In this document: piece by piece, positions 45,521-62,105 of the stretch
Layout: each line of letters starts with the position of its first letter
Position numbering within the stretch: the first letter of the stretch is position 1
DNA from: an uncultured Rickettsiales bacterium
GTDB taxonomy: Bacteria > Pseudomonadota > Alphaproteobacteria > Micavibrionales > GCA-2720935
Assembly: GCA_950054255.1 (NCBI GenBank)
Contig: CATLOR010000002.1
Coordinates: 143,106-207,105, forward strand
Length of the DNA: 64,000 nucleotides
Direction: 5' to 3'
Notes under the pieces: generated by a model
Database searches by the model: none
The model's input: only the letters and a program-made list of their open reading frames with translations
Told to the model about the DNA's origin: nothing
Position numbers and translations under genes: made by a program

Positions 45521-46326
45521 GGTGATGTCAGACTAAATCGAACTATTCTCCAAAAGCATACTACGTCAAGTTTTAGGCTACAAGAATTTCATTCCACGCA
45601 TCAAGCGAGGATTGTCTTAAATCTTTAAATGTGTCTCTTTTTTCGTTGTGTCTTTCGTGATTAAAATAGTTTTGGAATTGCGATTGTATCGCGGTGAATT
45701 TTTGAAGGGATCCCATTGATCGGAACCTGTTCATGATTTTTTCTCGCCGTCGAAAATGGAGGTGAGAGTTTTCAACTAAGTTGTTTTTATAGCGTGTCGT
45801 ATTTTGTGAAAATTTCATATTCATGCGCTGTAAAGCAGCACCATAAGAGCCCAATTTATCTGTAATAATTTCTCTTGGTTTCCCGTGTTGTGAGACTAGT
45901 TTCTTAAGCACCTTAAGGGCGGCACGCCGATCCCGCTTTTTCGTTACGTAACAATCTAAAACCGTTCCTTCATGGTCAATCGCTCGCCATAAGTAATGTA
46001 ACTCACCATTAATTTTGACGAATACCTCGTCGATGTGCCATCGCCATTTCGATGGGGCATGGCTACGTTTTTTCTTTAGCTCTTTGGCAATAATGGGACC
46101 CAGATGGTTCCACCAATATCGAACCGTTTCATGACAAATATCAATACCACGTTCATACAAAATATCTTCAACATTTCGTAAGCTGAGTGGATAACGAACG
46201 TAATATTGCACAGCTAATTTGATGATTTCAGGGCTGGTTTTATAGTATTTAAAGGGATCTATTTTACTCATATCAGATTTTATCATGTTATATTTTTCAA
46301 AAACATCGTTTTAATCTGACAAGACC
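45521..46326 (-). mobile_element. IS6-family insertion sequence, copy 1 (806 bp)
   Basis: Terminal inverted repeats GGTGATGTCAGACTAAATCGA (45521...) and GGTCTTGTCAGATTAAAACGA (reverse complement ending at 46326). Single transposase ORF. Confidence 0.9.
45573..46286 (-). CDS. IS6-family transposase (DDE)
   Basis: 237 aa, the size and sequence style of IS26/IS6 Tnp (WRWHIDEVFVKINGELHYLWRAIDHEG..., ITDKLGSYGAA...NNLVENSH). Confidence 0.9.
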   Translation of the reverse strand: MIKSDMSKIDPFKYYKTSPEIIKLAVQYYVRYPLSLRNVEDILYERGIDICHETVRYWWNHLGPIIAKELKKKRSHAPSKWRWHIDEVFVKINGELHYLWRAIDHEGTVLDCYVTKKRDRRAALKVLKKLVSQHGKPREIITDKLGSYGAALQRMNMKFSQNTTRYKNNLVENSHLHFRRREKIMNRFRSMGSLQKFTAIQSQFQNYFNHERHNEKRDTFKDLRQSSLDAWNEILVA

Positions 46327-46641
46327 ATTTTGACAAATATCTCGTCGATGTGCCATCGCCATTTCGAAGGTGCATGGTTACGTTTTTTCTTTAGCTCTTT
46401 TGCAATAATAGGACCTAAATGATTCCACCAATAACGAACCGTCTCATGACAAATATCAATGCCACGCTCATGCAAAATGTCTTCAACATTTCGCAGACTA
46501 AGCGGATAACGAACGTAATATTGTACCGCTAGTTTGATAATTTCAGGACTGGTTTTATAGTATTTGAAAGGATCTATTTTGCTCATAAGTAAGTCTATCA
46601 TGAACAGAATTAGGAAAACGTTATTTTAGTCTGACAAGACC
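46327..46641 (-). mobile_element. truncated older IS6-family copy (upstream IR plus 5' ~270 nt of tnp), interrupted by copy 1
   Basis: Own IR GGTCTTGTCAGACTAAAATAACG (reverse complement ending at 46641). The 96-aa ORF 46311-46601 matches Tnp residues 1 to ~90, then reads into the IR of copy 1 (...FVKMVLSD stop). Its nucleotide sequence is diverged from copy 1. Confidence 0.85.
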
Positions 46642-46654
46642 CTCATGGTTAGCC

Positions 46655-48835
46655 TCATATTTTTGTTAAATTTAAACGCAGCGCATTGCCGACTACGCTG
46701 ACGGAACTCAGCGACATGGCGGCAGCGGCGAAAATGGGTGAGAGTAAAATCCCGAAGACCGGATACAAAACACCTGCGGCAATCGGCACGCCCGCAGCGT
46801 TATAGATAAACGCGAAAAACAGGTTCTGCCGGATATTGCGCATGGTGGCGCGGGAGAGATTGATCGCCTCGGCAATACCGTTTAAATCACCGCGCAGCAG
46901 CGTTACGCCCGCGCTTTCCATGGCAACATCGGTTCCGGTTCCCATGGCAATACCGACATGCGCAGCCGCCAGTGCGGGCGCATCATTCACACCGTCTCCG
47001 GCCATGGCCACGACTGCGCCTTTATCACGCAGCTCTCCGACAATGCGGCTTTTATCCTCCGGCATTACATCGGCATGCACTTCATCAATGCCGAGCTTTT
47101 CTGCCACCGCGCGGGCGGTCGTTTCGTTATCTCCGGTCAGCATCACGATCTTTAAACCCGCTTTATGAAGGTTTTGAATAGCCTCCGGCGTGGTATCTTT
47201 GATCGGGTCGGAGACGGCAATAACGCCCGCCGCCTTGCCGTTCACGGCCACAAACATGGCTGTCGCGCCTTGCGCCCGTAAATTATCCGCTCCTTCCGTA
47301 AGGGGCGTTATATCCGCGCCTATGGCTTCCATCATTTTACTGTTACCAAGCGCGACCTTGGCACCGCTGACCTGACCTTTCACGCCTTTGCCTGTTATGG
47401 CCTCAAAATCCAGCGCTTTGGGCAATTCCAGATCCTGATCATGGGCGGCGCGGACAATCGCCTCGGCCAGCGGGTGTTCACTGCCTTGTTCCAACGCCGC
47501 AGAAATGGTGAGCAACTCGCTCTCCTCAAAGCCGTCTGCAGTGATAATATCGGTCAGGGCCGGTCGGCCTTGTGTGAGCGTTCCTGTTTTATCGACAATC
47601 AGCGTGTCCACCTTTTCCATGGTTTCCAGCGCTTCGGCGTCTTTGATCAAAACACCAGCCTTTGCGCCGCGACCGACGCCCACCATAATCGACATGGGCG
47701 TGGCCAGTCCCAAAGCGCACGGACAGGCGATAATCAAAACGCTGACGGCGGCAATCAAGGCGTAGCTAAAGGCCGGAGCTGGGCCAACCAGCGACCAGAC
47801 AATAAAGGCGATGATGGCGATCACAATGACAATCGGCACAAACCAGCCCGCGACGAGGTCGGCCATGCGCTGAATAGGAGCGCGGCTCCGCTGCGCGTCC
47901 GCCACCATTTTAACGATCTGCGCCAGCATCGTATCGCGCCCGACTTTTTCAGCGCGGATAATGATCGAGCCGTTGGCGTTGACCGTGGCTCCTATAACCT
48001 TGGATCCGGCCTGTTTTTCGACAGGCATCGGTTCGCCTGTGACCATGGATTCATCAATATGGCTGCTGCCTTCACTCACAACGCCGTCCACTGGCACTTT
48101 TTCGCCTGGACGGATCCGCAAATGGTCACCGACCTGAATATCTTCGATGGCAATTTCCTGCGCATCGCCGTTGTCATCAATCCGGTGTGCGGTTTTGGGG
48201 GCCAGCCCCAGCAAGGCTTTAATCGCACCGCCTGTGCGTTCCCGCGCTTTAAGCTCCAGTATTTGCCCCAGCAAGACCAAAGTCACGATCACCGCCGCCG
48301 CTTCAAAATATACTGGCACTGCGCCGCTTTCGCCCCTGAAGGAATCGGGGAAGATATCCGGCGTGACAGTTGCCGCAACGCTGTAAATCCACGCTACGCC
48401 CGTTCCCATAGCGATCAGTGTGAACATATTGAGGTTGCGGCTTTTGACCGATGCCCAGCCGCGTTCAAAGAACGGCCAGCCCGCCCATAAAACAACAGGC
48501 GTGGCGAGGACAAGCTGGATCCAGTTGGAAGTCGTGCCGTCCATAAACTCATGAAAGCCCAGCAAGTGAGATCCCATCTCCAGAATAAAGACCGGAATGG
48601 TGAGGATCAGACCGACCCAGAACCGTCGCCTGAAATCCGTCAGATCTGGGTTTTCGCCTTCATCGCCCGTCATCGTTTCCGGCTCAAGCGCCATGCCGCA
48701 TATGGGGCAAGTCCCAGGGCCTTTTTGAATGACCTCTGGGTGCATCGGGCAGATATAGGTGATCTCGTTCGGATCCACGCCCTCTGGCAGCGGAGCTGGC
48801 TCTTTATGCTCGTGGCTGTGGCAACAATCGCTCAT
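46655..48835 (-). CDS. copA: copper/silver-translocating P1B-type ATPase
   Basis: CPC ([13 protein letters not shown]), [21 protein letters not shown]. The N-terminus has CCHSHEH and a CPMHPEV...CPICGM zinc-ribbon-like metal-binding motif instead of a classical GMTCxxC HMA domain. Confidence 0.9.
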
Positions 48836-48838
48836 GGT

Positions 48839-50164
48839 TTATTCCTTTTCTTCTTTGTAATGTTTGAGGAAGATACGCTCTCCGGCGAAAATGAAGATCA
48901 TCGCCGCAATAGAGACATAAATAACCAGCATGTCGCTTTGCGCTTTCATCCATAAAAACGCGCCCAGCACCACCACATCCATGACGATGGCGGTGATTAG
49001 CACAAAGGCGTTGGCATTGATCTTGTGGCGCAAATACCGAAACACGCCCCAATGGACGGCTATATCCATGACGAGGTAGAAAATAGCGCCCAGCGATGCG
49101 ATCCGGCTGAGATCAAAAAATATGGTCAGGAACATGGCCAGTGCAATCGTGTACACCAGCGTATGTTTTTGAATGTCACCAGGCATCCCGAAATGGCTGT
49201 GCGGCACCAGCTTCATATCGGTGAGCATCGCCAGCATGCGTGAGACGGCAAAAGCACTGGCAATCACGCCGGAGACGGTGGCTATAATCGCCAGCACGAC
49301 CGTAAACCACAGGCCGAAATCACCAAAGGCCGGACGCGCTGCTTCCGCCAGGGCGAAGTTTTTCGCCGCGATAATTTCCGGCAGCGATAAATTCATCGAC
49401 ACCGCCATAGCGACCAGAAAGTAAACAACCACGCAAATTACAATGGAGAGAATAATCGCCCGCCCAACATTGCGGTGCGGATCCACAATCTCCGAGCCGC
49501 TATTGGTGATGGTGGTAAAGCCTTTATAGGCAAGAATGGCCAGAGCTACTGCCGCCAAAAACCCGACAGCGCTGCCGCTGTCTGCGGGCGCAGCGGTCAT
49601 GTTTTCAAAAGAAATGCCGGAAATCCATAGCCCCGCAATCCCGAATGCGGCAATCCCGCCGATCTTTAAGAGCGACATGACAAAGGAAAACGTCCCGATC
49701 ATGCGGTTGCCGGAAATGTTGATGATGAAGGCGAAGATTAATAATCCCACGCCAAGCGCCGGAACGAGCCAGCTATTCTGGTCGATATCAAAGAGCTGTA
49801 GGGTATAGGTGCCAAAGGTGCGGGCCACTAGGCTCTCATTGATGACCATGGAGAAATACATCAATAGCCCGCAAGCGGCTGTAATGGTGCCTTTGCCATA
49901 GGCTTTTTCTAAAAACATGGCGATCCCGCCCGCAGATGGGAACGCATTGGACATTTTCACATAGGAATAAGCGCTAAACGCGGTAATGACCGCTGCCACC
50001 AAAAATGCGAGAGGAAAGTGCGGGCCGGCCAGCTCCGCAATTTGTCCGGTCAGGGCGAAAATTCCTGCGCCAATAATCACGGCTGTCCCCATAGAGACAG
50101 CCCCGATCAGGCTTAAGCTGTTTTCTTTATACTGCGCGGCTTTGCCGTGTTGTGAATGATCCAT
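48839..50164 (-). CDS. APC-superfamily permease (amino acid/polyamine type)
   Basis: 441 aa, about 12 TM, glycine-rich helices typical of the APC fold. Sits 3 nt upstream of copA. Confidence 0.7.
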   Translation of the reverse strand: MDHSQHGKAAQYKENSLSLIGAVSMGTAVIIGAGIFALTGQIAELAGPHFPLAFLVAAVITAFSAYSYVKMSNAFPSAGGIAMFLEKAYGKGTITAACGLLMYFSMVINESLVARTFGTYTLQLFDIDQNSWLVPALGVGLLIFAFIINISGNRMIGTFSFVMSLLKIGGIAAFGIAGLWISGISFENMTAAPADSGSAVGFLAAVALAILAYKGFTTITNSGSEIVDPHRNVGRAIILSIVICVVVYFLVAMAVSMNLSLPEIIAAKNFALAEAARPAFGDFGLWFTVVLAIIATVSGVIASAFAVSRMLAMLTDMKLVPHSHFGMPGDIQKHTLVYTIALAMFLTIFFDLSRIASLGAIFYLVMDIAVHWGVFRYLRHKINANAFVLITAIVMDVVVLGAFLWMKAQSDMLVIYVSIAAMIFIFAGERIFLKHYKEEKE

Positions 50165-50329
50165 TTAGTTTTTACTGCCGCAGCAACCTCCTTGTTTTTC
50201 AGCCTTGTCTGTGTCCGGCTTTTTGGCTTCGCCGTCACAGCAACCGTCTTTTTCTTTTTCCGGCTGGCTGTGATCGTGATGTTTATCGCCGCCGCAACAG
50301 CCGCCGTCTTTGTGATCGTGATGGGTCAT
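50165..50329 (-). CDS. 54-aa Cys-Cys/His-rich putative metal-binding peptide (not in the ORF track)
   Basis: Hand translation: MTHHDHKDGGCCGGDKHHDHSQPEKEKDGCCDGEAKKPDTDKAEKQGGCCGSKN. The ATG overlaps the ICMT stop (ATGA). AAGGAG lies ~9 nt upstream. The stop abuts the APC start codon. Confidence 0.55.
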   Translation of the reverse strand: MTHHDHKDGGCCGGDKHHDHSQPEKEKDGCCDGEAKKPDTDKAEKQGGCCGSKN

Positions 50330-50988
50330 GATGATGCTCCTTTAGTGGTTGGGGTTGATGAAAACTTGGGAATAAAGGCCGGAACATGGGCGGCGTAATC
50401 GTCCCATGCCTTGCCGAAACGCTCCCTTGAATCCTGCTCTTCTTTTTTGGCCAGCCGGATATACATGAAAGTCAAAATCGGGAACAGCACCACGGTCGGG
50501 ATGGTCGGCCATTGCAGCAAAAACCCGAACATAATGGCGATAAAGCCGATATATTGCGGGTGCCGGACTTTTTGATATAAGCCCGCGACCGCCATTTTTC
50601 CGGCGCGTTGAGCTTTGAATAAAACAGGCCATGCCGCCGAGAGAACCCAGAAACCGCCGCCAATAAAGACAAAGCTGGCGAGATGCATCGGATCAAAGTG
50701 CGGGTTGCCTTCAAAGCCCAGGATTGTGTTCCAGAGATGCCCGTTTTCGTGCGTTGTAAAATCAACGCCTGGGTATTTCTCTGCCAGCCAGCCGGACATG
50801 AGATAGATGGTCAGCGGGAAGCCGTACATTTCCGTGAACAGCGCCACCAGAAAACCGGAGAACGCGCCGAAGCTGCGCCAGTCGGCCTTGGTCTGCGGTT
50901 TGGCAAAGCTGAAAGCAAAGATAATGAAAATCAGCGAGTTTAAAATAACCAGGCTCCAGAGGCCGTATGATTGCATTGCATGTTCCAT
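50326..50988 (-). CDS. isoprenylcysteine carboxyl methyltransferase (ICMT)/PEMT-family membrane methyltransferase (CzcN/NccN-like)
   Basis: 220 aa, multi-TM. GLYQKVRHPQYIGFIAIMFGFLLQWPT is the family signature. Confidence 0.75.
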   Translation of the reverse strand: MEHAMQSYGLWSLVILNSLIFIIFAFSFAKPQTKADWRSFGAFSGFLVALFTEMYGFPLTIYLMSGWLAEKYPGVDFTTHENGHLWNTILGFEGNPHFDPMHLASFVFIGGGFWVLSAAWPVLFKAQRAGKMAVAGLYQKVRHPQYIGFIAIMFGFLLQWPTIPTVVLFPILTFMYIRLAKKEEQDSRERFGKAWDDYAAHVPAFIPKFSSTPTTKGASS

Positions 50989-50991
50989 GAT

Positions 50992-51237
50992 TTAGTCCTC
51001 TTTATCCTTGTCTTTATGATCGCCATGCCCGCCGTGACTGCCATGCATAAACACATGGATCAAAGGGCAAGCCAGCAGGATCAGCCATATCCAGTTATTG
51101 CCGATATGCGCGGCATGTTCCTGAATGAGAAGATACGCGGCCACCGCGAAAAAGAAGATGCACGCCATGCCGAACGGTGTTTTCCACCATGGCTTGGTCT
51201 TCTCCGGTTTGTGGTAATGCTCGTGCTCGTGATCCAT
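50992..51237 (-). CDS. DUF2933-family small membrane protein, His-rich
   Basis: 81 aa, two TM. LLACPLIHVFMHGSHGGHGDH matches the DUF2933 pattern as I remember it. Confidence 0.65.
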   Translation of the reverse strand: MDHEHEHYHKPEKTKPWWKTPFGMACIFFFAVAAYLLIQEHAAHIGNNWIWLILLACPLIHVFMHGSHGGHGDHKDKDKED

Positions 51238-51240
51238 TGT

Positions 51241-51663
51241 TTAATCTCCTTTGTGCTTATGATTTGAATGTAAAAACGTAACTATCGGGCAATCGCTCAA
51301 AGGCAGATCGCCGCCTGGACACTCCGCCGCCAGATCTTCGAGGCTTCTTTTCATCGCCATAAGATCCTCGATATCTTTTTGGGCTTCGGTAATTTTGGTT
51401 TCTGTAAGATCCAGCATGTCCTGCGCAGTACCGCCGTCTGATGCGTGTAATTCAAGAAGGGATTGGATTTCCGAGAGCTTAAAGCCCAAAGACTTAGCGC
51501 GTTTGATGAAGGCTACCCGCGCGACAGACGCAGCATCATAAAGTCTGTAGCCAGAACTTGTCCGACCAACAGGCTCGATGAGCTTCAGCGTTTCATAATA
51601 ACGGATCGTATCCGTTCTCACGCCGCTTTCTCTTGCTAATTGTCCAATCGTCATATCTGCCAT
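51241..51663 (-). CDS. MerR-family heavy-metal-responsive regulator (CueR/HmrR-like)
   Basis: N-terminal wHTH (MTIGQLARESGVRTDTIRYYE), dimerisation helix, C-terminal metal loop CPGGDLPLSDCP. No Cys at the position that typifies divalent-metal sensors. Confidence 0.85.
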   Translation of the reverse strand: MADMTIGQLARESGVRTDTIRYYETLKLIEPVGRTSSGYRLYDAASVARVAFIKRAKSLGFKLSEIQSLLELHASDGGTAQDMLDLTETKITEAQKDIEDLMAMKRSLEDLAAECPGGDLPLSDCPIVTFLHSNHKHKGD

Positions 51664-51686
51664 TATTCAATCCTTATATTTGGGAG

Positions 51687-51716
51687 CGTATACCTTGGAG
51701 TATGCTCCAAGGTCAA
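51687..51716 (-). promoter_or_regulatory. MerR-type operator/promoter
   Basis: Minus strand reads TTGACC-TTGGAGCATACTCCAAGG-TATACG. There is a perfect 9-bp dyad ACCTTGGAG-N4-CTCCAAGGT (51692-51713) overlapping the -35, with an 18-19 nt spacer. The layout parallels the E. coli PcopA CueR site (TTGACCTTCC...GGAAGGT). Confidence 0.65.
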
Positions 51717-51720
51717 GCCC

Positions 51721-52296
51721 TTAATGCGGATGCCCGCTGTGATCATCGTGATCACCTTGATCACCGTGCGGGTCTGCTTCTGCCGCGCCGTGGTGTCCTG
51801 CGCCAGCATCCTCACCATGCGCGTGGCTTCCATGACCGCCATCGCCAGAGATTTCCGGCATACGCATCACGCCCATGCCGTGGCGGTAAACGACTTCGCC
51901 GCCCTTATATCCGGTCACGGCCAACAAGCCGGAGGCCAGCAAGATCAAAACAACAAAGCCGGAGCTGACGGATTTTGCGCCGCGATGTTTGGCCAGCGAC
52001 CATATCGCCAGAACGCCGAATATGGACGCTGTTACCAGCGCCCAATTCTTATGGTCAGTCATGGCCGCGTGGGATGGGCCGTCATGCGCCACGGTGTTAT
52101 AGGCATAGAAACCAGCCAAAACCGTACCGACTGTGATGCCAGCACCAATCCAGAGATTCCACCGCGCGACAATCAGAAGGTTCGGCCTCCTTAAAACCAG
52201 TCCGGCCAGATAAAGCAGCGATGACAGGCTTAAGAGTGCCACCGTGAAATGCACAAAGATTGGGTGCCAATTTGGTATGATTTCTATGTCCATCAT
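51721..52296 (-). CDS. DUF2231-family membrane protein with His-rich C-terminal tail
   Basis: N-terminal NWHPIFVHFTVAL motif, 4 TM, tail GGHGSHAHGEDAGAGHHGAAEADPHGDQGDHDDHSGHPH. Confidence 0.6.
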   Translation of the reverse strand: MMDIEIIPNWHPIFVHFTVALLSLSSLLYLAGLVLRRPNLLIVARWNLWIGAGITVGTVLAGFYAYNTVAHDGPSHAAMTDHKNWALVTASIFGVLAIWSLAKHRGAKSVSSGFVVLILLASGLLAVTGYKGGEVVYRHGMGVMRMPEISGDGGHGSHAHGEDAGAGHHGAAEADPHGDQGDHDDHSGHPH

Positions 52297-52311
52297 TGTT
52301 TTAGTCCTCTC

Positions 52312-53013
52312 TTAGTGTTGGTGATCGCCATGACCAGCTTCCGGCGTCATAATTTTTGTGATCCGGTAAACCTTGTCTTCGCCAAGCTCTACATGAAAAT
52401 GAATGTCCTGTTCTGGCTTCAAAGTGCTCAAATCAACACCCTCTGCCACTGCTAAATCCATAGTCATTTCAGGCCATTTCAAAGCTGGTATAGGTTCATG
52501 CGTAAGGTTGAGTTTATTATTCTCAGCATCAATGCTGTGAACCACACCCTTACCCATGACCGCTACGCTATCTTCTGACATATCATGGCCAGAATGATCC
52601 ATTTTCCCATGGCTTGAATGATCCATAGGCATTTGCTTAATTTTTTGTTCTTGGGTGTTATTAAAAACGTAGTTTTTCATCGTTTCCTCGCTCTCGAAAT
52701 AATAAACATTGTTACTTGAATCTACGGCAATAACAGCTTCGGCTTTATCAACTGAATTACCACTTACAGGGTCAATAGCTGAGCGTATTGCTTCATCATT
52801 TTTCAGTCTTTCCTCGCACATTGAGCAACATCCGTAATAAGTCTTATCTCCTACTGGAACGGAAATTTGCTCTTTATCAAAAACGCTGTCATTCACCATG
52901 CAAATGTATTTTGATTCAACGATCTTGAGCTGGTTTTTACTCATTGAAGTGTCTTCTGCCGCTATAGCGGGAAAAGCTATAAATGCCATTAGTAATGTTA
53001 ATATTATTTTCAT
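52312..53013 (-). CDS. periplasmic YHS/TRASH-like plus CusF-like Cu(I)/Ag(I)-binding fusion protein
   Basis: Signal peptide MKIILTLLMAFIAFPAIA. YYGCCSMCEERL (YHS-like). C-terminal GVVHSID...ALKWPEMTMDL reproduces the CusF His/Trp/Met-x-Met site. Start set at 53013 (ATGA overlap with the upstream gene). Confidence 0.7.
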   Translation of the reverse strand: MKIILTLLMAFIAFPAIAAEDTSMSKNQLKIVESKYICMVNDSVFDKEQISVPVGDKTYYGCCSMCEERLKNDEAIRSAIDPVSGNSVDKAEAVIAVDSSNNVYYFESEETMKNYVFNNTQEQKIKQMPMDHSSHGKMDHSGHDMSEDSVAVMGKGVVHSIDAENNKLNLTHEPIPALKWPEMTMDLAVAEGVDLSTLKPEQDIHFHVELGEDKVYRITKIMTPEAGHGDHQH

Positions 53014-53480
53014 TGGTTTTTCTCCTTTAAGGTTATGGTTGGTAAATGAACATCCCACAGCTTTTGCACTGCAAAATATGTCACCATGACAGACCATCCA
53101 ATCAGAACCAGGCCGTTTAAAACCTGAACTCCAGTGATGAACTGCATAGCTCCATGTGGAAAAACATCGCCTATACCAAGCGATGAATAAGTGGCGGCTG
53201 AAAAATATATGTAGCCAAAAAAATTATCGTGGGCGATACCGCTTAATGGCTCTGCTCCAAAAGTGTGCACCATTACCCAATAGACTGTGCCGTAAATCCA
53301 AACAGCTACCGTATGGGCAGAAAAAATCGCAACAACTAGGAAGAACATTAAAGGACGATTTCGCAAATTGCGTTTTGCAATAATCCGCAACACAACCCCT
53401 AATATTTCATAAAAAATAGAAGTCGTTAAAAGCACTAAAGCAATACTAATGAAGATAGCTACAGACATATTCTCATACAT
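53010..53480 (-). CDS. two-TM ion-channel (Ion_trans_2-like) protein
   Basis: 156 aa. Pore-loop-like YFSAATYSSLGIGDVFP (a variant of the TxGYGD filter) between TM helices. Confidence 0.5.
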   Translation of the reverse strand: MYENMSVAIFISIALVLLTTSIFYEILGVVLRIIAKRNLRNRPLMFFLVVAIFSAHTVAVWIYGTVYWVMVHTFGAEPLSGIAHDNFFGYIYFSAATYSSLGIGDVFPHGAMQFITGVQVLNGLVLIGWSVMVTYFAVQKLWDVHLPTITLKEKNQ

Positions 53481-56400
53481 TAGGCACTCTCCATTTTTGA
53501 ATTACTAAAGCGCCGGCCTTCCCAGAGATAATAGATAACGGGAATAACGATCAGGGTGAGCAGCGTGGTGGTGATCATGCCGCCGACCATCGGCAGAGCG
53601 ATGCGGCGCATCACATCCGCGCCAAGTCCGGCGAAAATGAAGATCGGCAGCAATCCGGCGAATTCGGTAATCACCGTCATCAATACAGGCCGGATGCGCA
53701 TCAACGCGCCTTCAAAGACCGCTTCGCTGAGTTGCTCTTTAGTGGCGGGGCTGGTTTCGCGCACACGCAGATCGATATAAACCATCATGATCGTGGCGGT
53801 TTCGACCGCCAGCCCGCCGAGCGCGATAAAGCCCACTCCGGCGGCAACGGAGAGATTATAATCCGCCAGATAAATCGCCCACATCCCGCCGACCATGGCC
53901 ACAGGCAGCGAGAGCATCACCATCAGCGTCCGGTCGGTGCGTCCGAAATAAATCATCAGCAAAACAAAGATGGCAAAGCCAGCGGCGGGGATGGCGATAG
54001 AGAGCTGTTTTTTCGCCTCCAGCATCTGTTCAAACTGGCCTGACCATTCCACGGCATAGCCCGCAGGAAGATCGACATTATCGCGCACGGCGATTTGCGC
54101 GTCTTTCACATAGGAGCCGATATCGCGGTCCTCAATATCGACAAAGACCCAGCCTGTCAGCCGTGCATTTTCCGACTTGATCATTGGCGGGCCTTCGACG
54201 AATTCGATCTTCGCCAGCTCACCCAGCGGGATATGCTGGCCTTGGGGTGTGGGGACTAAAATATCAGATAGATCCTCTGGGTCTTCGCGAAACGGGCGGT
54301 CATAGCGCAGCATGATGTTATAGCGCTCACGCCCCTGAATGGATTCGGACATTTTCATTCCACCGAGCGCGGTGCCGATAATATTCTGGAATACGCCCAG
54401 ATCAATATTGCGCCGCGCCAGTTCGTCTCTGTCTGGGGTCACTTCCAGATATTTCCCGCCTGTAACGCGGTCGGCAAAAGCGGAGCGTGTGCCATCAACG
54501 TCTTTGATCGCAGCCTCAATATCCAAAGCCACGCGGCCTATGGTGTCGAGATGATCGCCGGAAATTTTAATGCCGATGGGCGTGCGGATTCCCGTCGAGA
54601 TCATATCCATACGGATTTTGATCGGATAGCCCCATGAATTGACTACCCCAGGCAATTTGACGCGGGCATTCATATCCTTGATCAAATCCTCCGGCGTCAT
54701 GCCTTTACGCCAGTCCTCGCGCGGTTTGAGTTTGATCCATGTCTCGATCATCGAAATCGGTGCCGGATCCGTGGCGGTATCAGCGCGGCCAACCTTGCCG
54801 AATACGTGATGGACTTCCGGCACATCCTTGATCATGCGGTTGGTCTGCTGCAGGATTTCCTTGGCCTTGGTGATCGACACCCCAGGCAAAGTGGTCGGCA
54901 TATAAAGCAATTCGCCCTCATACAGCGCGGGCATGAATTCCGAGCCTGTGCGCATAATCGGCACGGCCATGCTTGCGATCAAGGCAATGGTGACAATAAT
55001 TGTCAGCGCGGGTTTGGCCAGCACATGGCGCAGGAGCGGACGGTAGAGCTTTAATAGCCCCGCATTGACCGGATTGACTTCGGCCTTTTTGATTTTACCG
55101 CGCAGCATCCATAGCATAAGGATCGGAATGACCGTCACCGATAAAATGGCGGCAAAGCCCAGCACATAGGTCTTGGTGAAGGCCAGCGGTGAAAACAGGC
55201 GGTAGGATTGCCCTGTGAGCGCCAGTACAGGAAGGAAGGAGATCGTGATAATCAGCAGCGAGAAAAACAGCCCAGGGCCGACTTCCTTGGCGGCATCCAG
55301 TATGGCTTTGTGCCTTTGGTCTTTTGGCGCATCCTCCGATAGCTCCGCCAGCTTCCTGTGCGCGTTTTCGACCATGACAATCGAGGCATCCACCATTGTC
55401 CCAATCGCAATCGCAATCCCGCCCAGCGAGACGATATTGGCGGTGATGCCTTGCGCCGACATAATGATAAATGCGCCCAAGACGCCAAGCGGCAGCACAA
55501 TCAGCGCGACAAAGGCCGAGCGGACATGCAGCAAAAAGATAAACACGACCAGCGAGACAATAATCGCCTGTTTGATCAGCGTGTCGGTGAGATAATTCAC
55601 AGCGCCTTCAATCAGCGGGGCGCGGTCATAAACAGGGACGATCTCCACGCCTTCGGGCAGGCCTTGCTGCAGCTCGGCCAGTTTTTCTTTTACGCCCTCA
55701 ATCACATGCAAAGCGTTCTCGCCGGCCCGCATCACAACAACGCCAGCCACGACTTCACCTTCGCCGTTTAGCTCGGTCACGCCGCGCCGCAGCTCCGGCC
55801 CCTCAATCACGCGGGCAACATCCTCCAGCTTCACAGGGGTGCCGTCTCTGGCATAGAGAACAATCTTTTTAAGCTGGCTGATATCGGTGACATAGCCTTT
55901 GGAGCGGATCATCAGCTCCATCTCAGCTTTTTCAATGACGCGGCCTCCGGCATCCATACTGGCGCTTTTAACCGCTTCCATTAGGCGCTTTAAGGGAATA
56001 TCAAAGGCACGGAGACGGTTGGGATCAATGAGGATCTGGTATTCTTTGACAAACCCGCCGACCGAGGCCACCTCCGATACGCCGTCCACGGTCGCCAGCT
56101 CGAATTTTAAAAACCAGTCCTGCAAACTGCGCAGATCAGAGAGATCATGATCGCCGCTTTTATCAATCAGCGCATATTGATAGACCCAGCCCACACCTGT
56201 GGCATCGGGGCCGATCTGCGGCACGACATTGGGCGGCAGATCGCCCTGAATTTTGGACAGCGCCTCGATCACGCGGCTCCGCGCCCAATACTGGTCGATT
56301 TTGTCTTCAAAAATGATATAGACAAAGGATGTGCCGAACATCGAAAACCCGCGCACATTTTTGGTTTCCGGTAGCCCTAACATCGTGGTCGAGAGCGGAT

Positions 56401-56644
56401 ATGTGACCAGATCCTCAACAATCTGCGGTGACTGCCCGACAAAATCGGTGCGGATAATCACCTGCGTATCCGACATATCGGGGATGGCATCCAGCGGGGT
56501 TTTCTGCACCGCCAGAATGCCCGCCACCAATAATGCGATCATCATCACAATAATCAGCAACTGGTTATTGACCGAATACTCAATGACTTTCGCCACAAAG
56601 GATTGCGAGGGGTCGCGCGTCTGGTTTGGATCAGTGGTTGGCAT
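53480..56644 (-). CDS. cusA: heavy-metal efflux RND pump CusA (Cu+/Ag+)
   Basis: 1054 aa. The N-terminus aligns closely with E. coli CusA from memory (DAIPDMSDTQVIIRT...PQIVEDLVTYPL...VRGFSMFG...YWARSRV...GPDATGVGW). All three CusA Met-triad contexts are conserved (LLYMPTT, ISMIETW, RMDMISTG). Confidence 0.9.
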   Translation of the reverse strand: MPTTDPNQTRDPSQSFVAKVIEYSVNNQLLIIVMMIALLVAGILAVQKTPLDAIPDMSDTQVIIRTDFVGQSPQIVEDLVTYPLSTTMLGLPETKNVRGFSMFGTSFVYIIFEDKIDQYWARSRVIEALSKIQGDLPPNVVPQIGPDATGVGWVYQYALIDKSGDHDLSDLRSLQDWFLKFELATVDGVSEVASVGGFVKEYQILIDPNRLRAFDIPLKRLMEAVKSASMDAGGRVIEKAEMELMIRSKGYVTDISQLKKIVLYARDGTPVKLEDVARVIEGPELRRGVTELNGEGEVVAGVVVMRAGENALHVIEGVKEKLAELQQGLPEGVEIVPVYDRAPLIEGAVNYLTDTLIKQAIIVSLVVFIFLLHVRSAFVALIVLPLGVLGAFIIMSAQGITANIVSLGGIAIAIGTMVDASIVMVENAHRKLAELSEDAPKDQRHKAILDAAKEVGPGLFFSLLIITISFLPVLALTGQSYRLFSPLAFTKTYVLGFAAILSVTVIPILMLWMLRGKIKKAEVNPVNAGLLKLYRPLLRHVLAKPALTIIVTIALIASMAVPIMRTGSEFMPALYEGELLYMPTTLPGVSITKAKEILQQTNRMIKDVPEVHHVFGKVGRADTATDPAPISMIETWIKLKPREDWRKGMTPEDLIKDMNARVKLPGVVNSWGYPIKIRMDMISTGIRTPIGIKISGDHLDTIGRVALDIEAAIKDVDGTRSAFADRVTGGKYLEVTPDRDELARRNIDLGVFQNIIGTALGGMKMSESIQGRERYNIMLRYDRPFREDPEDLSDILVPTPQGQHIPLGELAKIEFVEGPPMIKSENARLTGWVFVDIEDRDIGSYVKDAQIAVRDNVDLPAGYAVEWSGQFEQMLEAKKQLSIAIPAAGFAIFVLLMIYFGRTDRTLMVMLSLPVAMVGGMWAIYLADYNLSVAAGVGFIALGGLAVETATIMMVYIDLRVRETSPATKEQLSEAVFEGALMRIRPVLMTVITEFAGLLPIFIFAGLGADVMRRIALPMVGGMITTTLLTLIVIPVIYYLWEGRRFSNSKMESA

Positions 56645-58322
56645 GTGCGCCTCCTGCGGGCATTTCGGTTATTTCAGGGGCTTCGGCCTCTACCTTGTCC
56701 GGCCAGTCGATTTTCATCGGATGACCTTCGCCGTACGGGTTCTCAACCTCATCGCCCAGCTGGAGCCAATAGGTGTCCAGACCGTGCGCCATATAGAATT
56801 GCAGCCCTTTGGATTTATAGTGCTGGGGTTTGCCCTCCAGCAGCCATGGTTTGAGCGCTGTGACCAGATTATTCAGGCTGTTCTGCCATTCCTTATCGGT
56901 CACATTGTCCTGTGCGGCTTTGAGTGCCATTTCCGCATCTTCCAAAACAAACTGCAGCTTGGTGCCACGGAAGACGGGCATCAAATGATCGCCCAGCGTG
57001 ATGGCGGGCATAATCATATTCGGATTGGGTGTGCGTCCGGTCGTCAGCTCTTTTTGGATATAAATGGCGGCATCAATCAGATGGTCGATCATCGCCAGCT
57101 GGTCATCCGTCATGTCTAAAAGAGCAAGCGGCATCTGCATGCGCTGCATTTTGCGGAAGGATTCCCGCAAGGCACTTTCAGAGTCGATCAGGAATTGTCC
57201 GCTGACCACCACCTTGTCTTTTTCAGCCAAGCCGTCCAGCACTTCCGTGCGGCCTTTATATTTCAATCCGGCCAGAATTTTGCGCGGCTGGAAGCGCCCC
57301 TGATCCATGGCCACCACCACAAAGTCGCCGTCCTTGCTTTTAAGAATAGCATCGCCTGGGATGGACAAACGGCGATCAACGCCTGTTTCCAGCTCCACAT
57401 CGGCGTAAGCGCCAGGCTTTAATTTGCCGTCCGCATTATCCAGCACCAGCCGGATCCGGCCTGTGCGCGTGGCGCGGTCAATCGTGGGATAGATATAATC
57501 AATGGCGGCTTCTTTTTCTTTTACCCCAAGGGCTGGGAGAGAGACCATCGCCTTTGTCTCTTTGGTAATATACGGGATATCCTGCTCGGCCACGCTGACA
57601 TCAACCCAGACCGTGTCGTAATTTTGCAGGGTCATCAAATTCATACCTGGCTTGGCATAGGTGCCGTCACGCACATTCATCGCACTGACCAGACCGTCAC
57701 TTTCCGCGTAGTACGGGACGCTTTGAAAGGCTTTGCGGCGGCTCTTGACCTCTTCGATGGCGCGTTTTTGCATGCCTAAAGACACGAGGCGCTTGGCGGC
57801 GGAGTCAATCCGGCCTTTATAGCCTGTGGCAATAGCGCTTATCAAATCCTGCTGCGCAGAAATCAGCGCCGGGCTGTAGAGATTAAAAAGCAGATCGCCT
57901 TTTTTCACTTCATCGCCCATGGCCTGGACTTTCAAATCCTCGACCCAGCCTTCCACGCGGGCGGAGATATCAAATTGCAGCCGGACATTTTCCGTCACAT
58001 CGCCATAGCTGCGCACCAAGGTGCCAAAGCTGGCCATCTGCGCTTCCTCGGTGCGGATGCCTGTATTCTGGATCGTTTCAGGGTCGATGGTGACGGTGGT
58101 GCGTTCCATACCGCCTTTATCACTTTTATCCATGCTTTCCATGGCTGCGCCGTCATCTTCACCTTCCAACTCCACCAGATCCATGCCGCAAATCGGGCAT
58201 GTGCCTGGGCGATCTGCGACATAATGCGGATGCATGGGGCATGTGTATTGTTCGGCTTGCGCTATCGCGGGGACGGCAAATAAAGCCAGTATTAAAAAGA
58301 ATGCGGGGATAAACTGTCTCAT
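56631..58322 (-). CDS. cusB: RND periplasmic adaptor CusB-like, with N-terminal CPMHP...CPICGM metal-binding motif and extended C-terminal domain
   Basis: Signal peptide. [24 protein letters not shown]. HlyD/MFP barrel-sandwich core. About 150 extra C-terminal residues (DUF3347-like helical region). Confidence 0.85.
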   Translation of the reverse strand: MRQFIPAFFLILALFAVPAIAQAEQYTCPMHPHYVADRPGTCPICGMDLVELEGEDDGAAMESMDKSDKGGMERTTVTIDPETIQNTGIRTEEAQMASFGTLVRSYGDVTENVRLQFDISARVEGWVEDLKVQAMGDEVKKGDLLFNLYSPALISAQQDLISAIATGYKGRIDSAAKRLVSLGMQKRAIEEVKSRRKAFQSVPYYAESDGLVSAMNVRDGTYAKPGMNLMTLQNYDTVWVDVSVAEQDIPYITKETKAMVSLPALGVKEKEAAIDYIYPTIDRATRTGRIRLVLDNADGKLKPGAYADVELETGVDRRLSIPGDAILKSKDGDFVVVAMDQGRFQPRKILAGLKYKGRTEVLDGLAEKDKVVVSGQFLIDSESALRESFRKMQRMQMPLALLDMTDDQLAMIDHLIDAAIYIQKELTTGRTPNPNMIMPAITLGDHLMPVFRGTKLQFVLEDAEMALKAAQDNVTDKEWQNSLNNLVTALKPWLLEGKPQHYKSKGLQFYMAHGLDTYWLQLGDEVENPYGEGHPMKIDWPDKVEAEAPEITEMPAGGAHANH

Positions 58323-60221: not shown

Positions 60222-60990
60222 CATACTACGTCAAGTTTTAGGCTACAAGAATTTCATTCCACGCATCAAGCGAGGATTGTCTTAAATCTTTAAATGTGTC
60301 TCTTTTTTCGTTGTGTCTTTCGTGATTAAAATAGTTTTGGAATTGCGATTGTATCGCGGTGAATTTTTGAAGGGATCCCATTGATCGGAACCTGTTCATG
60401 ATTTTTTCTCGCCGTCGAAAATGGAGGTGAGAGTTTTCAACTAAGTTGTTTTTATAGCGTGTCGTATTTTGTGAAAATTTCATATTCATGCGCTGTAAAG
60501 CAGCACCATAAGAGCCCAATTTATCTGTAATAATTTCTCTTGGTTTCCCGTGTTGTGAGACTAGTTTCTTAAGCACCTTAAGGGCGGCACGCCGATCCCG
60601 CTTTTTCGTTACGTAACAATCTAAAACCGTTCCTTCATGGTCAATCGCTCGCCATAAGTAATGTAACTCACCATTAATTTTGACGAATACCTCGTCGATG
60701 TGCCATCGCCATTTCGATGGGGCATGGCTACGTTTTTTCTTTAGCTCTTTGGCAATAATGGGACCCAGATGGTTCCACCAATATCGAACCGTTTCATGAC
60801 AAATATCAATGCCACGTTCGTACAAAATGTCTTCAACGTTTCGCAGGCTAAGCGGGTAACGAACATAGTACATGATCGCAAGTTTTATAATTTCAGGGCT
60901 GGTTTTGTAATATTTAAAGTGATTTATTTTTGTCATTATTAAGATTATCACGGCAAAAACCGTATAACATCATTTTAATCTGACAAGACC
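60186..60990 (-). mobile_element. IS6-family insertion sequence, copy 3 (805 bp)
   Basis: Same IRs as copy 1. 60186-60810 is identical by eye to 45521-46145. The last ~180 bp (tnp 5' end) is diverged. Confidence 0.9.
60238..60951 (-). CDS. IS6-family transposase (DDE)
   Basis: 237 aa. Identical to the copy-1 Tnp from about residue 28 onward, with a different N-terminal ~27 aa. Confidence 0.9.
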   Translation of the reverse strand: MIILIMTKINHFKYYKTSPEIIKLAIMYYVRYPLSLRNVEDILYERGIDICHETVRYWWNHLGPIIAKELKKKRSHAPSKWRWHIDEVFVKINGELHYLWRAIDHEGTVLDCYVTKKRDRRAALKVLKKLVSQHGKPREIITDKLGSYGAALQRMNMKFSQNTTRYKNNLVENSHLHFRRREKIMNRFRSMGSLQKFTAIQSQFQNYFNHERHNEKRDTFKDLRQSSLDAWNEILVA

Positions 60991-62105
60991 ATCATCAGTG
61001 TGGGCTTAACGGTGGGGTGCAGCTTAATATCATTACGCCGATGCGATGTTGCATGCACACCAGAATAATCCCAAACGTTAGTGCGGTAGCGTCCATGCTT
61101 GCCAAGTTCCACATTATTGGTATGAGAGTCACCAGCTTTCTTAAATACACATACAAACTCATGTTGTGAGCGGTACAAACTGCCCATACCAGCTGTTTGC
61201 TTGTTCCAAACACATATGTTCTTGAGGTCATCATAAATATCATGCGTTGCATTTAAGAGATCATTCACATGCCGCCAATCCATACATATGTAGTGAAGTG
61301 ATCCACTTTGGGATTGCTCAGCCGCTAAGGACAAAGACGTTTTTAAAAATGTCTGAAACTCTGATGTGCTCATTTCACCTGAGGCAAATGCAAACTCATC
61401 ATGTTGTGTTTTGCCCTTATTGCAAACATGACCCGAGATAGGCACGTTATACGGTGGGTCAATAAAACACATCTTTGCTTTTGCATCATCAAAGAATAAA
61501 ATCTCATAGTTTTCTTTTTGTAAGCTGTCTCCGCAATAAAGATAGTGTTTACCAAGTTGCCACAAATCACCAGACTCAACACGTTTTTCAATATTTAAAG
61601 GTTCTGGTAGAGGTGGTTCATCTTGATCTTGGCTGATTAAATCTTGGTGCACGATAAAATCAATTTCTGGCGTGTCGAACCCTGTAAGACTCAAATCAAA
61701 TTCTGTATCCATCTCAATCAGGTCTTCAAACTCTAATTTTAGAATATTAAAATCCCAGCCGGCTTTCTCTGCGAGTTTATTATCGGCTAAAATATAGGCT
61801 TTGCGCTGTGTACTTGTTAGATGTGAGAGCATAACAACAGGCACAGTATTGAGTTTTAAGAGCAATGCCGCTTTTACACGGCCAGCACCCGCTAATATCT
61901 TGTTAGTTTGATCAATCAGTATCGGATTTGTAAAACCGTATGCCTCAATACTATTTGCAATTTGTCTGATCTGTTTATCAGAATGCGTTCTCGCGCTGCG
62001 CTCGGGCACAACAATCTTAGATGGTGAGATATATGATATCTTTGATTTGTAAGTATGCGTTAAGTCTTTAGTTTTTGTGTTTCTGGTCATTTTTGAGCCC
62101 TCCAT
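60975..62105 (-). pseudogene. ParB-like nuclease domain / N6- or N4-DNA methyltransferase, 3'-truncated by IS copy 3
   Basis: N-terminal ParB/Srx-like region, DPPY motif (FIDPPYN), and HPTVKP. The ORF then runs into the IS inverted repeat (...TLMMVLSD stop). The AdoMet-binding FxGxG motif expected downstream is missing. Confidence 0.7.

Follow-up and report, generated by a model that had tools for sequence, protein, structure and literature searches.

The copA operon and its 54-residue peptide gene

The DNA analyzed here, hereafter the window, is a stretch of 64,000 nucleotides (nt) from an uncultured Rickettsiales bacterium (contig CATLOR010000002.1, positions 143,106 to 207,105). On its minus strand, at 50165..50329, lies an open reading frame (ORF) encoding a peptide of 54 residues with three Cys-Cys pairs (MTHHDHKDGGCCGGDKHHDHSQPEKEKDGCCDGEAKKPDTDKAEKQGGCCGSKN), exactly where an earlier sequence-only reading had placed it and with the translation quoted there. 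This ORF is a genuine protein-coding gene under purifying selection, and conservation extends to its frame, its ribosome-binding site and the junctions with its neighbors. It was also confirmed as part of a copper-export operon, with CopA, Cus genes and a MerR-type promoter in its context.

The gene was joined to both of its neighbors, as first described. Its ATG (50329..50327) overlapped, as ATGA, the TGA of a gene for a membrane methyltransferase of the ICMT/PEMT family (50326..50988, minus strand; Pfam PEMT and ICMT matches barely above the cut-offs), while its TAA (50167..50165) directly abutted the ATG of a gene for an APC-family permease of the amino-acid/polyamine type (48839..50164, minus strand; Pfam AA_permease_2, E 2.7e-30). 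A Shine-Dalgarno box, AAAGGAG (50343..50337, minus strand), was read 5' of the peptide ATG; the AAGGAG reported earlier was thus present, at 7 nt from the ATG and not at the ~9 nt given for it.

The six Cys residues of the peptide (11% of 54) were found at positions 11/12, 30/31 and 49/50, with an exact period of 19 residues. All were in CC and none in CxC or CxxC, in agreement with the remark that the pairs fall outside that pattern. His also accounted for 11% of the residues and included two HHDH runs. Phe, Trp, Tyr, Leu, Ile and Val were completely lacking, and the peptide therefore has no signal peptide, as had been claimed. Three CC pairs arose in 164 of 200,000 shuffles of the peptide residues, and among 200 ATG-started ORFs of at least 40 residues in the window a single further one displayed three CC, in a Cys-, Phe- and Leu-rich sequence unlike that of the peptide. 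The three-CC pattern exceeds chance, chiefly since the frame and the motifs stay conserved across homologs.

On 153 contigs of public assemblies, the gene calls included the exact 54-residue protein. From related loci, 12 distinct nucleotide versions were taken and codon-aligned, which gave 52 ungapped codon columns. The reading frame was kept in all 12, as the sequence-only reading had anticipated for a real gene, and all length differences were whole-codon insertions or deletions. Columns variable at codon positions 1, 2 and 3 numbered 25, 16 and 47 of the 52, respectively, and the pooled ratio of nonsynonymous to synonymous change (pN/pS) was 0.26, with synonymous change near saturation for many pairs. 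AAAGGAG was present at 7 nt before the ATG in 12 of 12 versions, and a comparable box was kept in divergent loci, AAAGGAG lying 8 nt upstream in L030 and AAGGAG 7 nt upstream in L033. In the same 12 versions, the peptide stop either abutted the next ATG or preceded by ~15 nt a CopA start bearing its own GGAG. No RNA family from Rfam matched either strand of 46000..53500.

A family built on three Cys-Cys pairs

Sequence searches returned 11, then 20, then 34 related clusters, the 34 being from among 5.8 billion proteins, and every named member was a 'hypothetical protein' in its source database. The peptide belongs to no named family, as had been supposed. Pfam and NCBIfam scans of the peptide (Pfam E up to 0.01) gave no family, a PDB sequence-profile search gave nothing at E up to 10, and a permissive Pfam scan of 28 members (E up to 10) gave chance-level matches only, to CYSTM, NICE-1, LCE and Tetraspanin (best E 0.048-10). 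No description of the peptide family was found in the literature on DUF2933, bacterial metallothioneins, Cys-Cys and GCCG motifs, or Micavibrio copper. The sequence family is new, and its probable function is of a kind already known.

Across 28 members, residues C12, C30, C31, C49 and C50 were invariant, and C11, G13, K16, E26 and G48 were conserved at 90% or more. The blocks EKEKDG and EKQGG were conserved as well, and conservation extended over the whole length of the peptide. Members were 52-64 residues long (two longer gene calls excepted) and harbored 5-7 Cys, almost always 6, together with 0-3 hydrophobic residues (Phe, Trp, Tyr, Leu, Ile or Val). Since His varied from 1 to 8 per member while Cys stayed at 5-7, the family is defined by its three Cys-Cys pairs and not by His clusters. 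Both traits had been put forward in the sequence-only reading: the pairs turned out to be the invariant feature of a peptide without a hydrophobic core, and the His clusters did not hold up as a defining trait.

In the most divergent members (P0040 and P0042) the middle CC was changed to CH, a swap that would retain a metal ligand and points to a ligand role for the Cys residues. AlphaFold, run with the family alignment, predicted no secondary structure (predicted local distance difference test score, pLDDT, 56; predicted template modeling score, pTM, 0.12), an outcome that fits a peptide able to fold only around a ligand. Member P0025 (97 residues; L025:4173-4466) displayed a C-terminal extension with CIGIH…CPFC, in which no Pfam domain was detected when it was checked as a possible informative fusion. 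P0036 (111 residues) was not taken as a true long member, since by eye it is an over-extended gene call entering from the C-terminus of DUF2933.

Genome matches, obtained with a 12-member family alignment, were almost all from Micavibrio-like or unclassified marine alphaproteobacterial metagenome-assembled genomes (MAGs), with single further bins of Phycisphaerales and Pseudobdellovibrionaceae. Further labels, on members from protein databases, were Planctomycetaceae, 'hydrothermal vent metagenome' and Paremcibacter congregatus, a cultured species of the Emcibacterales. A megablast of the operon against PLSDB plasmids gave no match.

Copper pump, variable neighbors and the surrounding island

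The peptide gene was found in a recurring operon with the order MerR-DUF2933-(ICMT-like)-peptide-(APC permease)-CopA, the two genes in brackets being variable. In the window, the last gene (46655..48835, minus strand) encoded a CopA with Pfam HMBD and E1-E2_ATPase matches, that is, with an HMBD zinc ribbon and no HMA domain, preceded by a Cys/His tail in its 12 N-terminal residues (48800..48835, minus strand). The motifs CPC, YN and MSLSS were read in its translation, it scored 620 bits against the Cu ATPase model TIGR01511 (cut-off 397), and its best PDB match was CopA of Legionella pneumophila (3RFU; 1026 bits), aligned end to end. These motifs and scores identify the pump as a P1B-1 ATPase that exports Cu(I). 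CusA, CusB and a CusF-like protein were copper-type neighbors in the window, and a multicopper oxidase and CopB in other loci.

The first operon gene (51241..51663, minus strand) encoded a MerR-family metal-sensing regulator (Pfam MerR, MerR_1 and MerR-DNA-bind). In a manual alignment to E. coli CueR, this regulator appeared to have Ala or Thr, not Cys, at the divalent-ion-sensor position. Its metal loop was C-x9-C, that of CueR being C-x7-C, and it may be a distinct sensor subtype. Upstream of the regulator gene, a MerR-type promoter was read at 51686..51716 (minus strand), with TTGACC (51716..51711), a spacer of 18-20 nt and TATACG/TACGCT, and a perfect 9-bp dyad, ACCTTGGAG-CATA-CTCCAAGGT (51713..51692), lay inside the spacer. 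An over-long spacer with an operator dyad is a hallmark of MerR-family promoters; a sigma-70 scan that permitted spacers of 16-18 nt only did not report this one. Between the regulator and the methyltransferase gene lay a gene for a small His-rich membrane protein (50992..51237, minus strand; Pfam DUF2933, E 1.7e-21).

Neighbors of the peptide gene differed between loci. Operons with both the ICMT-like gene and the APC permease gene (type A) were those of the window, L001-5, L012 and L016; those without ICMT (type B) were L006-9, L011, L013-15, L017 and L024; and those without APC permease (type C) were L010, L018-22 and L026. The ICMT-like gene stood directly 5' of the peptide gene in types A and C, and the permease gene 3' of it in types A and B and in L023, L025, L033 and L034. 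Other arrangements were an ICMT remnant, then the peptide, then CopA (L030), CopA-multicopper oxidase-CopB-peptide-APC (L023) and DUF2933-ICMT-peptide-DedA-APC (L025). DUF2933 was encoded upstream of the peptide in most contexts (not in L023, L028 and L030), and an HMBD-type CopA gene adjoined the peptide gene, or was one gene away, in 6 of 9 context types. In every locus with identifiable neighbors, the cluster around the peptide gene was metal-linked. The ICMT-like protein and the permease, named as the flanking genes in the sequence-only reading, were each absent from some operon types, and an obligate partnership of the peptide with either was rejected.

A further arrangement was that of L028 (4757-7310), with the order MerR-YHS-methyltransferase-peptide-FAD oxidoreductase and no CopA nearby. 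The distant member P0028 overlapped there the stop of a soluble CMAS-type S-adenosylmethionine (SAM) methyltransferase, behind MerR and a YHS protein, and the oxidoreductase 3' of it had a weak geranylgeranyl-reductase match. The peptide gene recurrently adjoins genes for methyltransferases whose two folds are unrelated, ICMT-like or, in L028, CMAS-type. Conversely, 67 metagenomic loci of ICMT homologs with enough downstream sequence were inspected, and a Cys-Cys mini-ORF was found in two, L033 and L034, which were also the two that kept APC permease and CopA. In these closest metagenomic ICMT-APC-CopA operons it occupied the slot of the peptide gene. This divergent mini-ORF (L033:4163-4333, L034 ~1290-1450; MDQGKENQITKPQTSGGCCCSSKKQAKVPVEEVKKETKSSCCMQEKEEYSTSVTAD; …GGCCCSSKK…SSCCM…) had two Cys clusters and its own AAGGAG. 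It was weakly related to the peptide family (hhalign probability 26%) and may be a fast-evolving positional counterpart of the peptide.

The peptide gene lay within a segment of ~14 kb (about 46.3-60.2 kb) with 50-55% GC, compared to 37-40% GC for the genome. Directly repeated copies of an IS6-family transposase gene (45573..46286 and 60238..60951) bounded this cus/copA island, which has a composite-transposon layout; a partial IS6-family copy was present at 46311..46601. Just outside the island, a 376-residue ORF (60975..62105, minus strand) appeared by eye to join a ParB-like N-terminus to a DNA methyltransferase, which hints that the island lies within a larger mobile or plasmid-like region. 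In L001, the region beyond CopA differed from the window: after one insertion sequence copy came the remnant of a CopA C-terminus, followed by genes for a multicopper oxidase and CopB. Three mosaic loci (L013, L014 and L015, from Micavibrio sp. SAT33 and a related MAG) were compared with window 46655..56644. Their CopA and CusA were 99.6% and 99.4% identical to those of the window, while the central DUF2933-peptide-APC cassette, without an ICMT gene, was only 62%, 83% and 77% identical. This contrast suggests that recombination exchanged the central part of the operon.

Nearly all island proteins (46655..58322) carried His-rich ends. These were found at both ends of DUF2933, in the CusF-like protein (…EAGHGDHQH), at the C-termini of a DUF2231 protein (…GDHDDHSGHPH), MerR (HSNHKHKGD) and CusB (GGAHANH), and at the N-termini of the APC permease (MDHSQHG) and CopA. 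A 156-residue protein with two transmembrane segments and an Ion_trans_2 (K+-channel-like) match was encoded between cusA and the cusF-like gene (53010..53480, minus strand), a position kept in the related copper islands L010, L011, L013, L016 and L018-21. Next to it, 52312..53097 (minus strand) encoded a periplasmic protein with a TRASH/YHS-like Cys motif (weak Pfam match) and a C-terminal CusF domain; its longest ORF, of 261 residues, overlapped the upstream gene by 88 nt, and the gene callers chose a start giving 233 residues in L001.

A probable Cu(I) buffer, weighed against its alternatives

Three CC pairs without a hydrophobic core fit a metallothionein-like, metal-folded binder, and the peptide, induced by copper, probably serves in the cytoplasm as a Cu(I)-thiolate buffer or as a donor for CopA. 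Disordered when alone, it would be co-transcribed with CopA from the MerR-type, metal-activated promoter and translationally coupled to the neighboring genes. The CC pairs, borne by flexible Lys/Glu/Asp/Gly linkers, could enclose Cu(I) in a thiolate cluster, in which the six thiolates would form a Cu4S6-type core. The peptide would keep cytosolic Cu(I) buffered during copper stress and would probably hand it to CopA. Metal binding, Cu(I) as the metal, the stoichiometry of the cluster and the hand-off to CopA are what we infer, and the assignment to Cu(I)/Ag(I) is drawn from the pump and the neighboring genes only.

Known pairs of chaperone and pump have matching metal-binding modules (PMC7558416), and the N-terminal tails of the cognate CopA proteins displayed ligand motifs like those of the peptide (e.g., …SSCCHTT… and …HSCCETHDHHH…). 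No GMxCxxC motif, as in CopZ and HMA domains, was found in the 64-kb window. In the CopA of the window, the Cys/His tail and the HMBD replace the ferredoxin-like domain on which CopZ docks, which suggests that the peptide would join metallothionein-like chemistry to the operon position and role of CopZ. CopZ/Atx1 is likewise a small cytoplasmic protein, encoded next to copA under a copper-sensing regulator and presumed to hand off Cu(I). The peptide, however, lacked the sequence and fold traits of such chaperones, with no HMA domain in Pfam, no MxCxxC and no ferredoxin-like fold predicted, and its cognate CopA differs from those of CopZ systems by the absence of HMA domains.

Bacterial metallothioneins (SmtA/BmtA, MymT) share with the peptide a small size, several Cys residues, an absence of aromatic residues and a presumed metal-thiolate folding. 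The length of the peptide and its family is within the metallothionein limit of 10 kDa, and the residue content and low pLDDT agree with the scarcity of aromatics and lack of independent fold that characterize these proteins. No match to SmtA/BmtA (Pfam Metallothio_Pro) was obtained, even at E up to 10. These bacterial metallothioneins are built on CxC, CxxC and CxH clusters, whereas the peptide has vicinal pairs ~19 residues apart, and its gene is hard-wired into a copA operon, whereas bacterial metallothionein genes are free-standing. The closest proteins by inferred function would be CopZ and the copper metallothioneins of the MymT type, MymT of Mycobacterium tuberculosis being an initially unannotated, copper-induced Cu(I) binder of ~5 kDa (PMC7558416).

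By motif content, the closest known protein was Hpn of Helicobacter pylori (60 residues; MAHHEEQHGG…), which is similar in size, cytoplasmic, without a hydrophobic core and has the same M-x-H-H start (PMC5312948, PMC10221980). Both place CC after acidic residues and Gly, in two EEGCC motifs in Hpn and in KDGGCC, KDGCC and KQGGCC in the peptide. Homology between them was rejected, BLASTP giving a motif match of 9-13 residues only (E 0.065). Hpn is 47% His with poly-His runs, while His is variable and dispensable in the peptide family; it has two CC pairs instead of three; and it supplies Ni for urease and hydrogenase, while the peptide sits in a Cu(I) efflux operon. The anchoring of metal by Cys-Cys is well documented for Hpn and HspA (PMC10221980, PMC5312948).

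Several observations weigh against a Cu(I) buffer or donor. The published Cys-Cys chemistry found in this analysis is that of Ni(II), Zn(II) and Fe(II) and does not extend to Cu(I). Legionella CopA also has a Cys/His tail (ACHHEH), and since such tails are generic to the Legionella-type subfamily, the resemblance of the tail to the peptide is only weak support; the CopA tails of type C operons, moreover, contain a single Cys. The Cys content of 11% is below the 15-30%, in CxC, CxxC or CC motifs, that is typical of metallothioneins, and the His residues are unconserved. The regulator scored 113, 109.5 and 106 bits against the NCBIfam models of ZntR, MerR and CueR, respectively, all below the cut-offs, and its assignment as CueR by hidden Markov models failed on these ambiguous scores. 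The family is narrow, and most related CopA/ICMT operons lack the peptide (65 of the 67 ICMT loci); at L028 a distant member occurs behind a soluble methyltransferase without a nearby CopA. Finally, the merR-copA-cupredoxin-DUF2933-ICMT clusters of Alteromonas and other marine Gammaproteobacteria, which lie on genomic islands and plasmids, share MerR, CopA, DUF2933 and ICMT-like genes with the operon, but as tabulated they have a cupredoxin gene, another gene order and neither a Cys-pair peptide nor an APC permease (PMC8478169).

The peptide could bind metal without being a copper protein, and act like Hpn as a store or buffer of the divalent ions Ni, Zn, Cd or Hg that rides a multi-metal island, which is unlikely. 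The near-equal scores of the regulator would fit such a role, as would the mer genes, the CDF transporter and the CsoR-like gene beside the operon in L026. Cys-Cys runs are moreover present in Zn/Cd P1B-2 ATPases (CCCDGAC in ZntA; the C-termini of plant HMA2 and HMA4). The M-x-H-H start and G-C-C motifs are shared with Hpn, which binds Ni, Zn and Bi (PMC5312948, PMC10221980). The adjacent pump, however, is a 3RFU-like Cu(I) P1B-1 ATPase by its CPC, YN and MSLSS motifs, and the recurrent neighbors are Cus proteins, CusF, multicopper oxidase and CopB. The peptide family does not conserve His, which is the main Ni ligand of Hpn, the similarity to Hpn is at motif level only, and the regulator appears from the CueR alignment to lack the Cys of divalent-ion sensors.

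It is distinctly unlikely that the peptide is a substrate of the adjacent methyltransferase, S- or carboxyl-methylated or otherwise matured, which would act as a modified, possibly membrane-associated or exported metal binder and not in its unmodified form. In the majority of context types, the gene directly 5' encoded a methyltransferase, and its stop often overlapped the peptide start (ICMT-like in types A and C, L025, L026, L033 and L034; a remnant in L030; the unrelated CMAS-type enzyme in L028), and a transporter gene was often 3' of the peptide. The peptide ends in CC plus 1-5 residues, an end loosely similar to the Rab and CaaX ends that eukaryotic ICMT processes. Yet no methyltransferase was found near the peptide in type B operons (L006-9, L011, L013-15 and L017) or in L023, and 65 of 67 loci of ICMT homologs had no Cys-Cys peptide at all. 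DUF2933-ICMT pairs are likewise common in copA clusters without it (PMC8478169). APC permeases transport amino acids and polyamines, not peptides of 54 residues. No prenyltransferase, protease, radical-SAM, YcaO or MNIO maturase was encoded in the operon; the maturases of ribosomally synthesized and post-translationally modified peptides of methanobactin or bufferin type (MNIO/DUF692, radical SAM, YcaO) were absent from the window operon and from the operons of related loci, and the radical-SAM gene of L028 belongs to a quinohemoprotein amine dehydrogenase cluster ~4 kb upstream. A leader/core layout was rejected, as conservation and selection span the whole peptide and not a core region only.

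A related but quite improbable idea, prompted by the recurrent adjacency to methyltransferases of two folds, is that the peptide is the natural client of the ICMT-like enzyme, and of the CMAS-type enzyme in L028, with methylation of Cys thiols or of the CC-terminal end tuning or relocating a copper binder. If true, this would be, to our knowledge, the first substrate for the bacterial 'isoprenylcysteine methyltransferase' homologs of metal islands, which include genes of the CzcN/NccN type.

Very improbable is a mini-ORF whose translation alone matters, by sensing Cys-tRNA or by coupling ribosomes to the permease and CopA genes, with a functionless peptide as its product. Stops and starts do abut or overlap on both sides of the gene, and the single-amino-acid runs (three CC, and HH) are reminiscent of the leaders of attenuators. 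The next ATG, however, follows at a distance of 0 nt, which leaves no room for a terminator or antiterminator, and no terminator-like site was found at the peptide/permease junction. At 52-64 residues, the peptide is also long for a leader. An attenuator was rejected on these grounds and on the purifying selection over the whole length (pN/pS 0.26), non-Cys positions (G13, K16, E26, G48, EKEKDG and EKQGG) being conserved too, and the gene persists while the downstream gene varies (APC permease, CopA or oxidoreductase).

A spurious ORF, or a true gene on the plus strand (80 residues at 50156..50398 or 59 residues at 50152..50331), can practically be dismissed: the peptide is low in sequence complexity and the two antisense frames do stay open in almost all homologs, because Lys, Glu, Asp and Gly codons give no opposite-strand stops, but the most variable sites are third positions of the minus-strand frame and thus position 1 or 2 of the plus-strand ORFs, which excludes antisense genes by codon phase, and the conserved Shine-Dalgarno box and ATG exist for the minus-strand frame only.

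A Cu(I) buffer or donor would be a finding of moderate significance, as its functional kind is already known and the family is confined to a narrow range of taxa. The known bacterial proteins of metallothionein-like type are few (SmtA/BmtA, MymT and a handful more), and the design of this candidate is unusually simple, with three Cys-Cys beads along a charged string. A synthetic 54-mer would allow a direct test, and the cultured carrier Paremcibacter congregatus is available for genetic work. More generally, ORFs below 60 residues in metal islands, at best called 'hypothetical', can face strong selection. The peptide is a conserved, operon-embedded candidate for the cytosolic supply of Cu(I) to Legionella-type CopA pumps, in which the classical CopZ-docking domain is missing.

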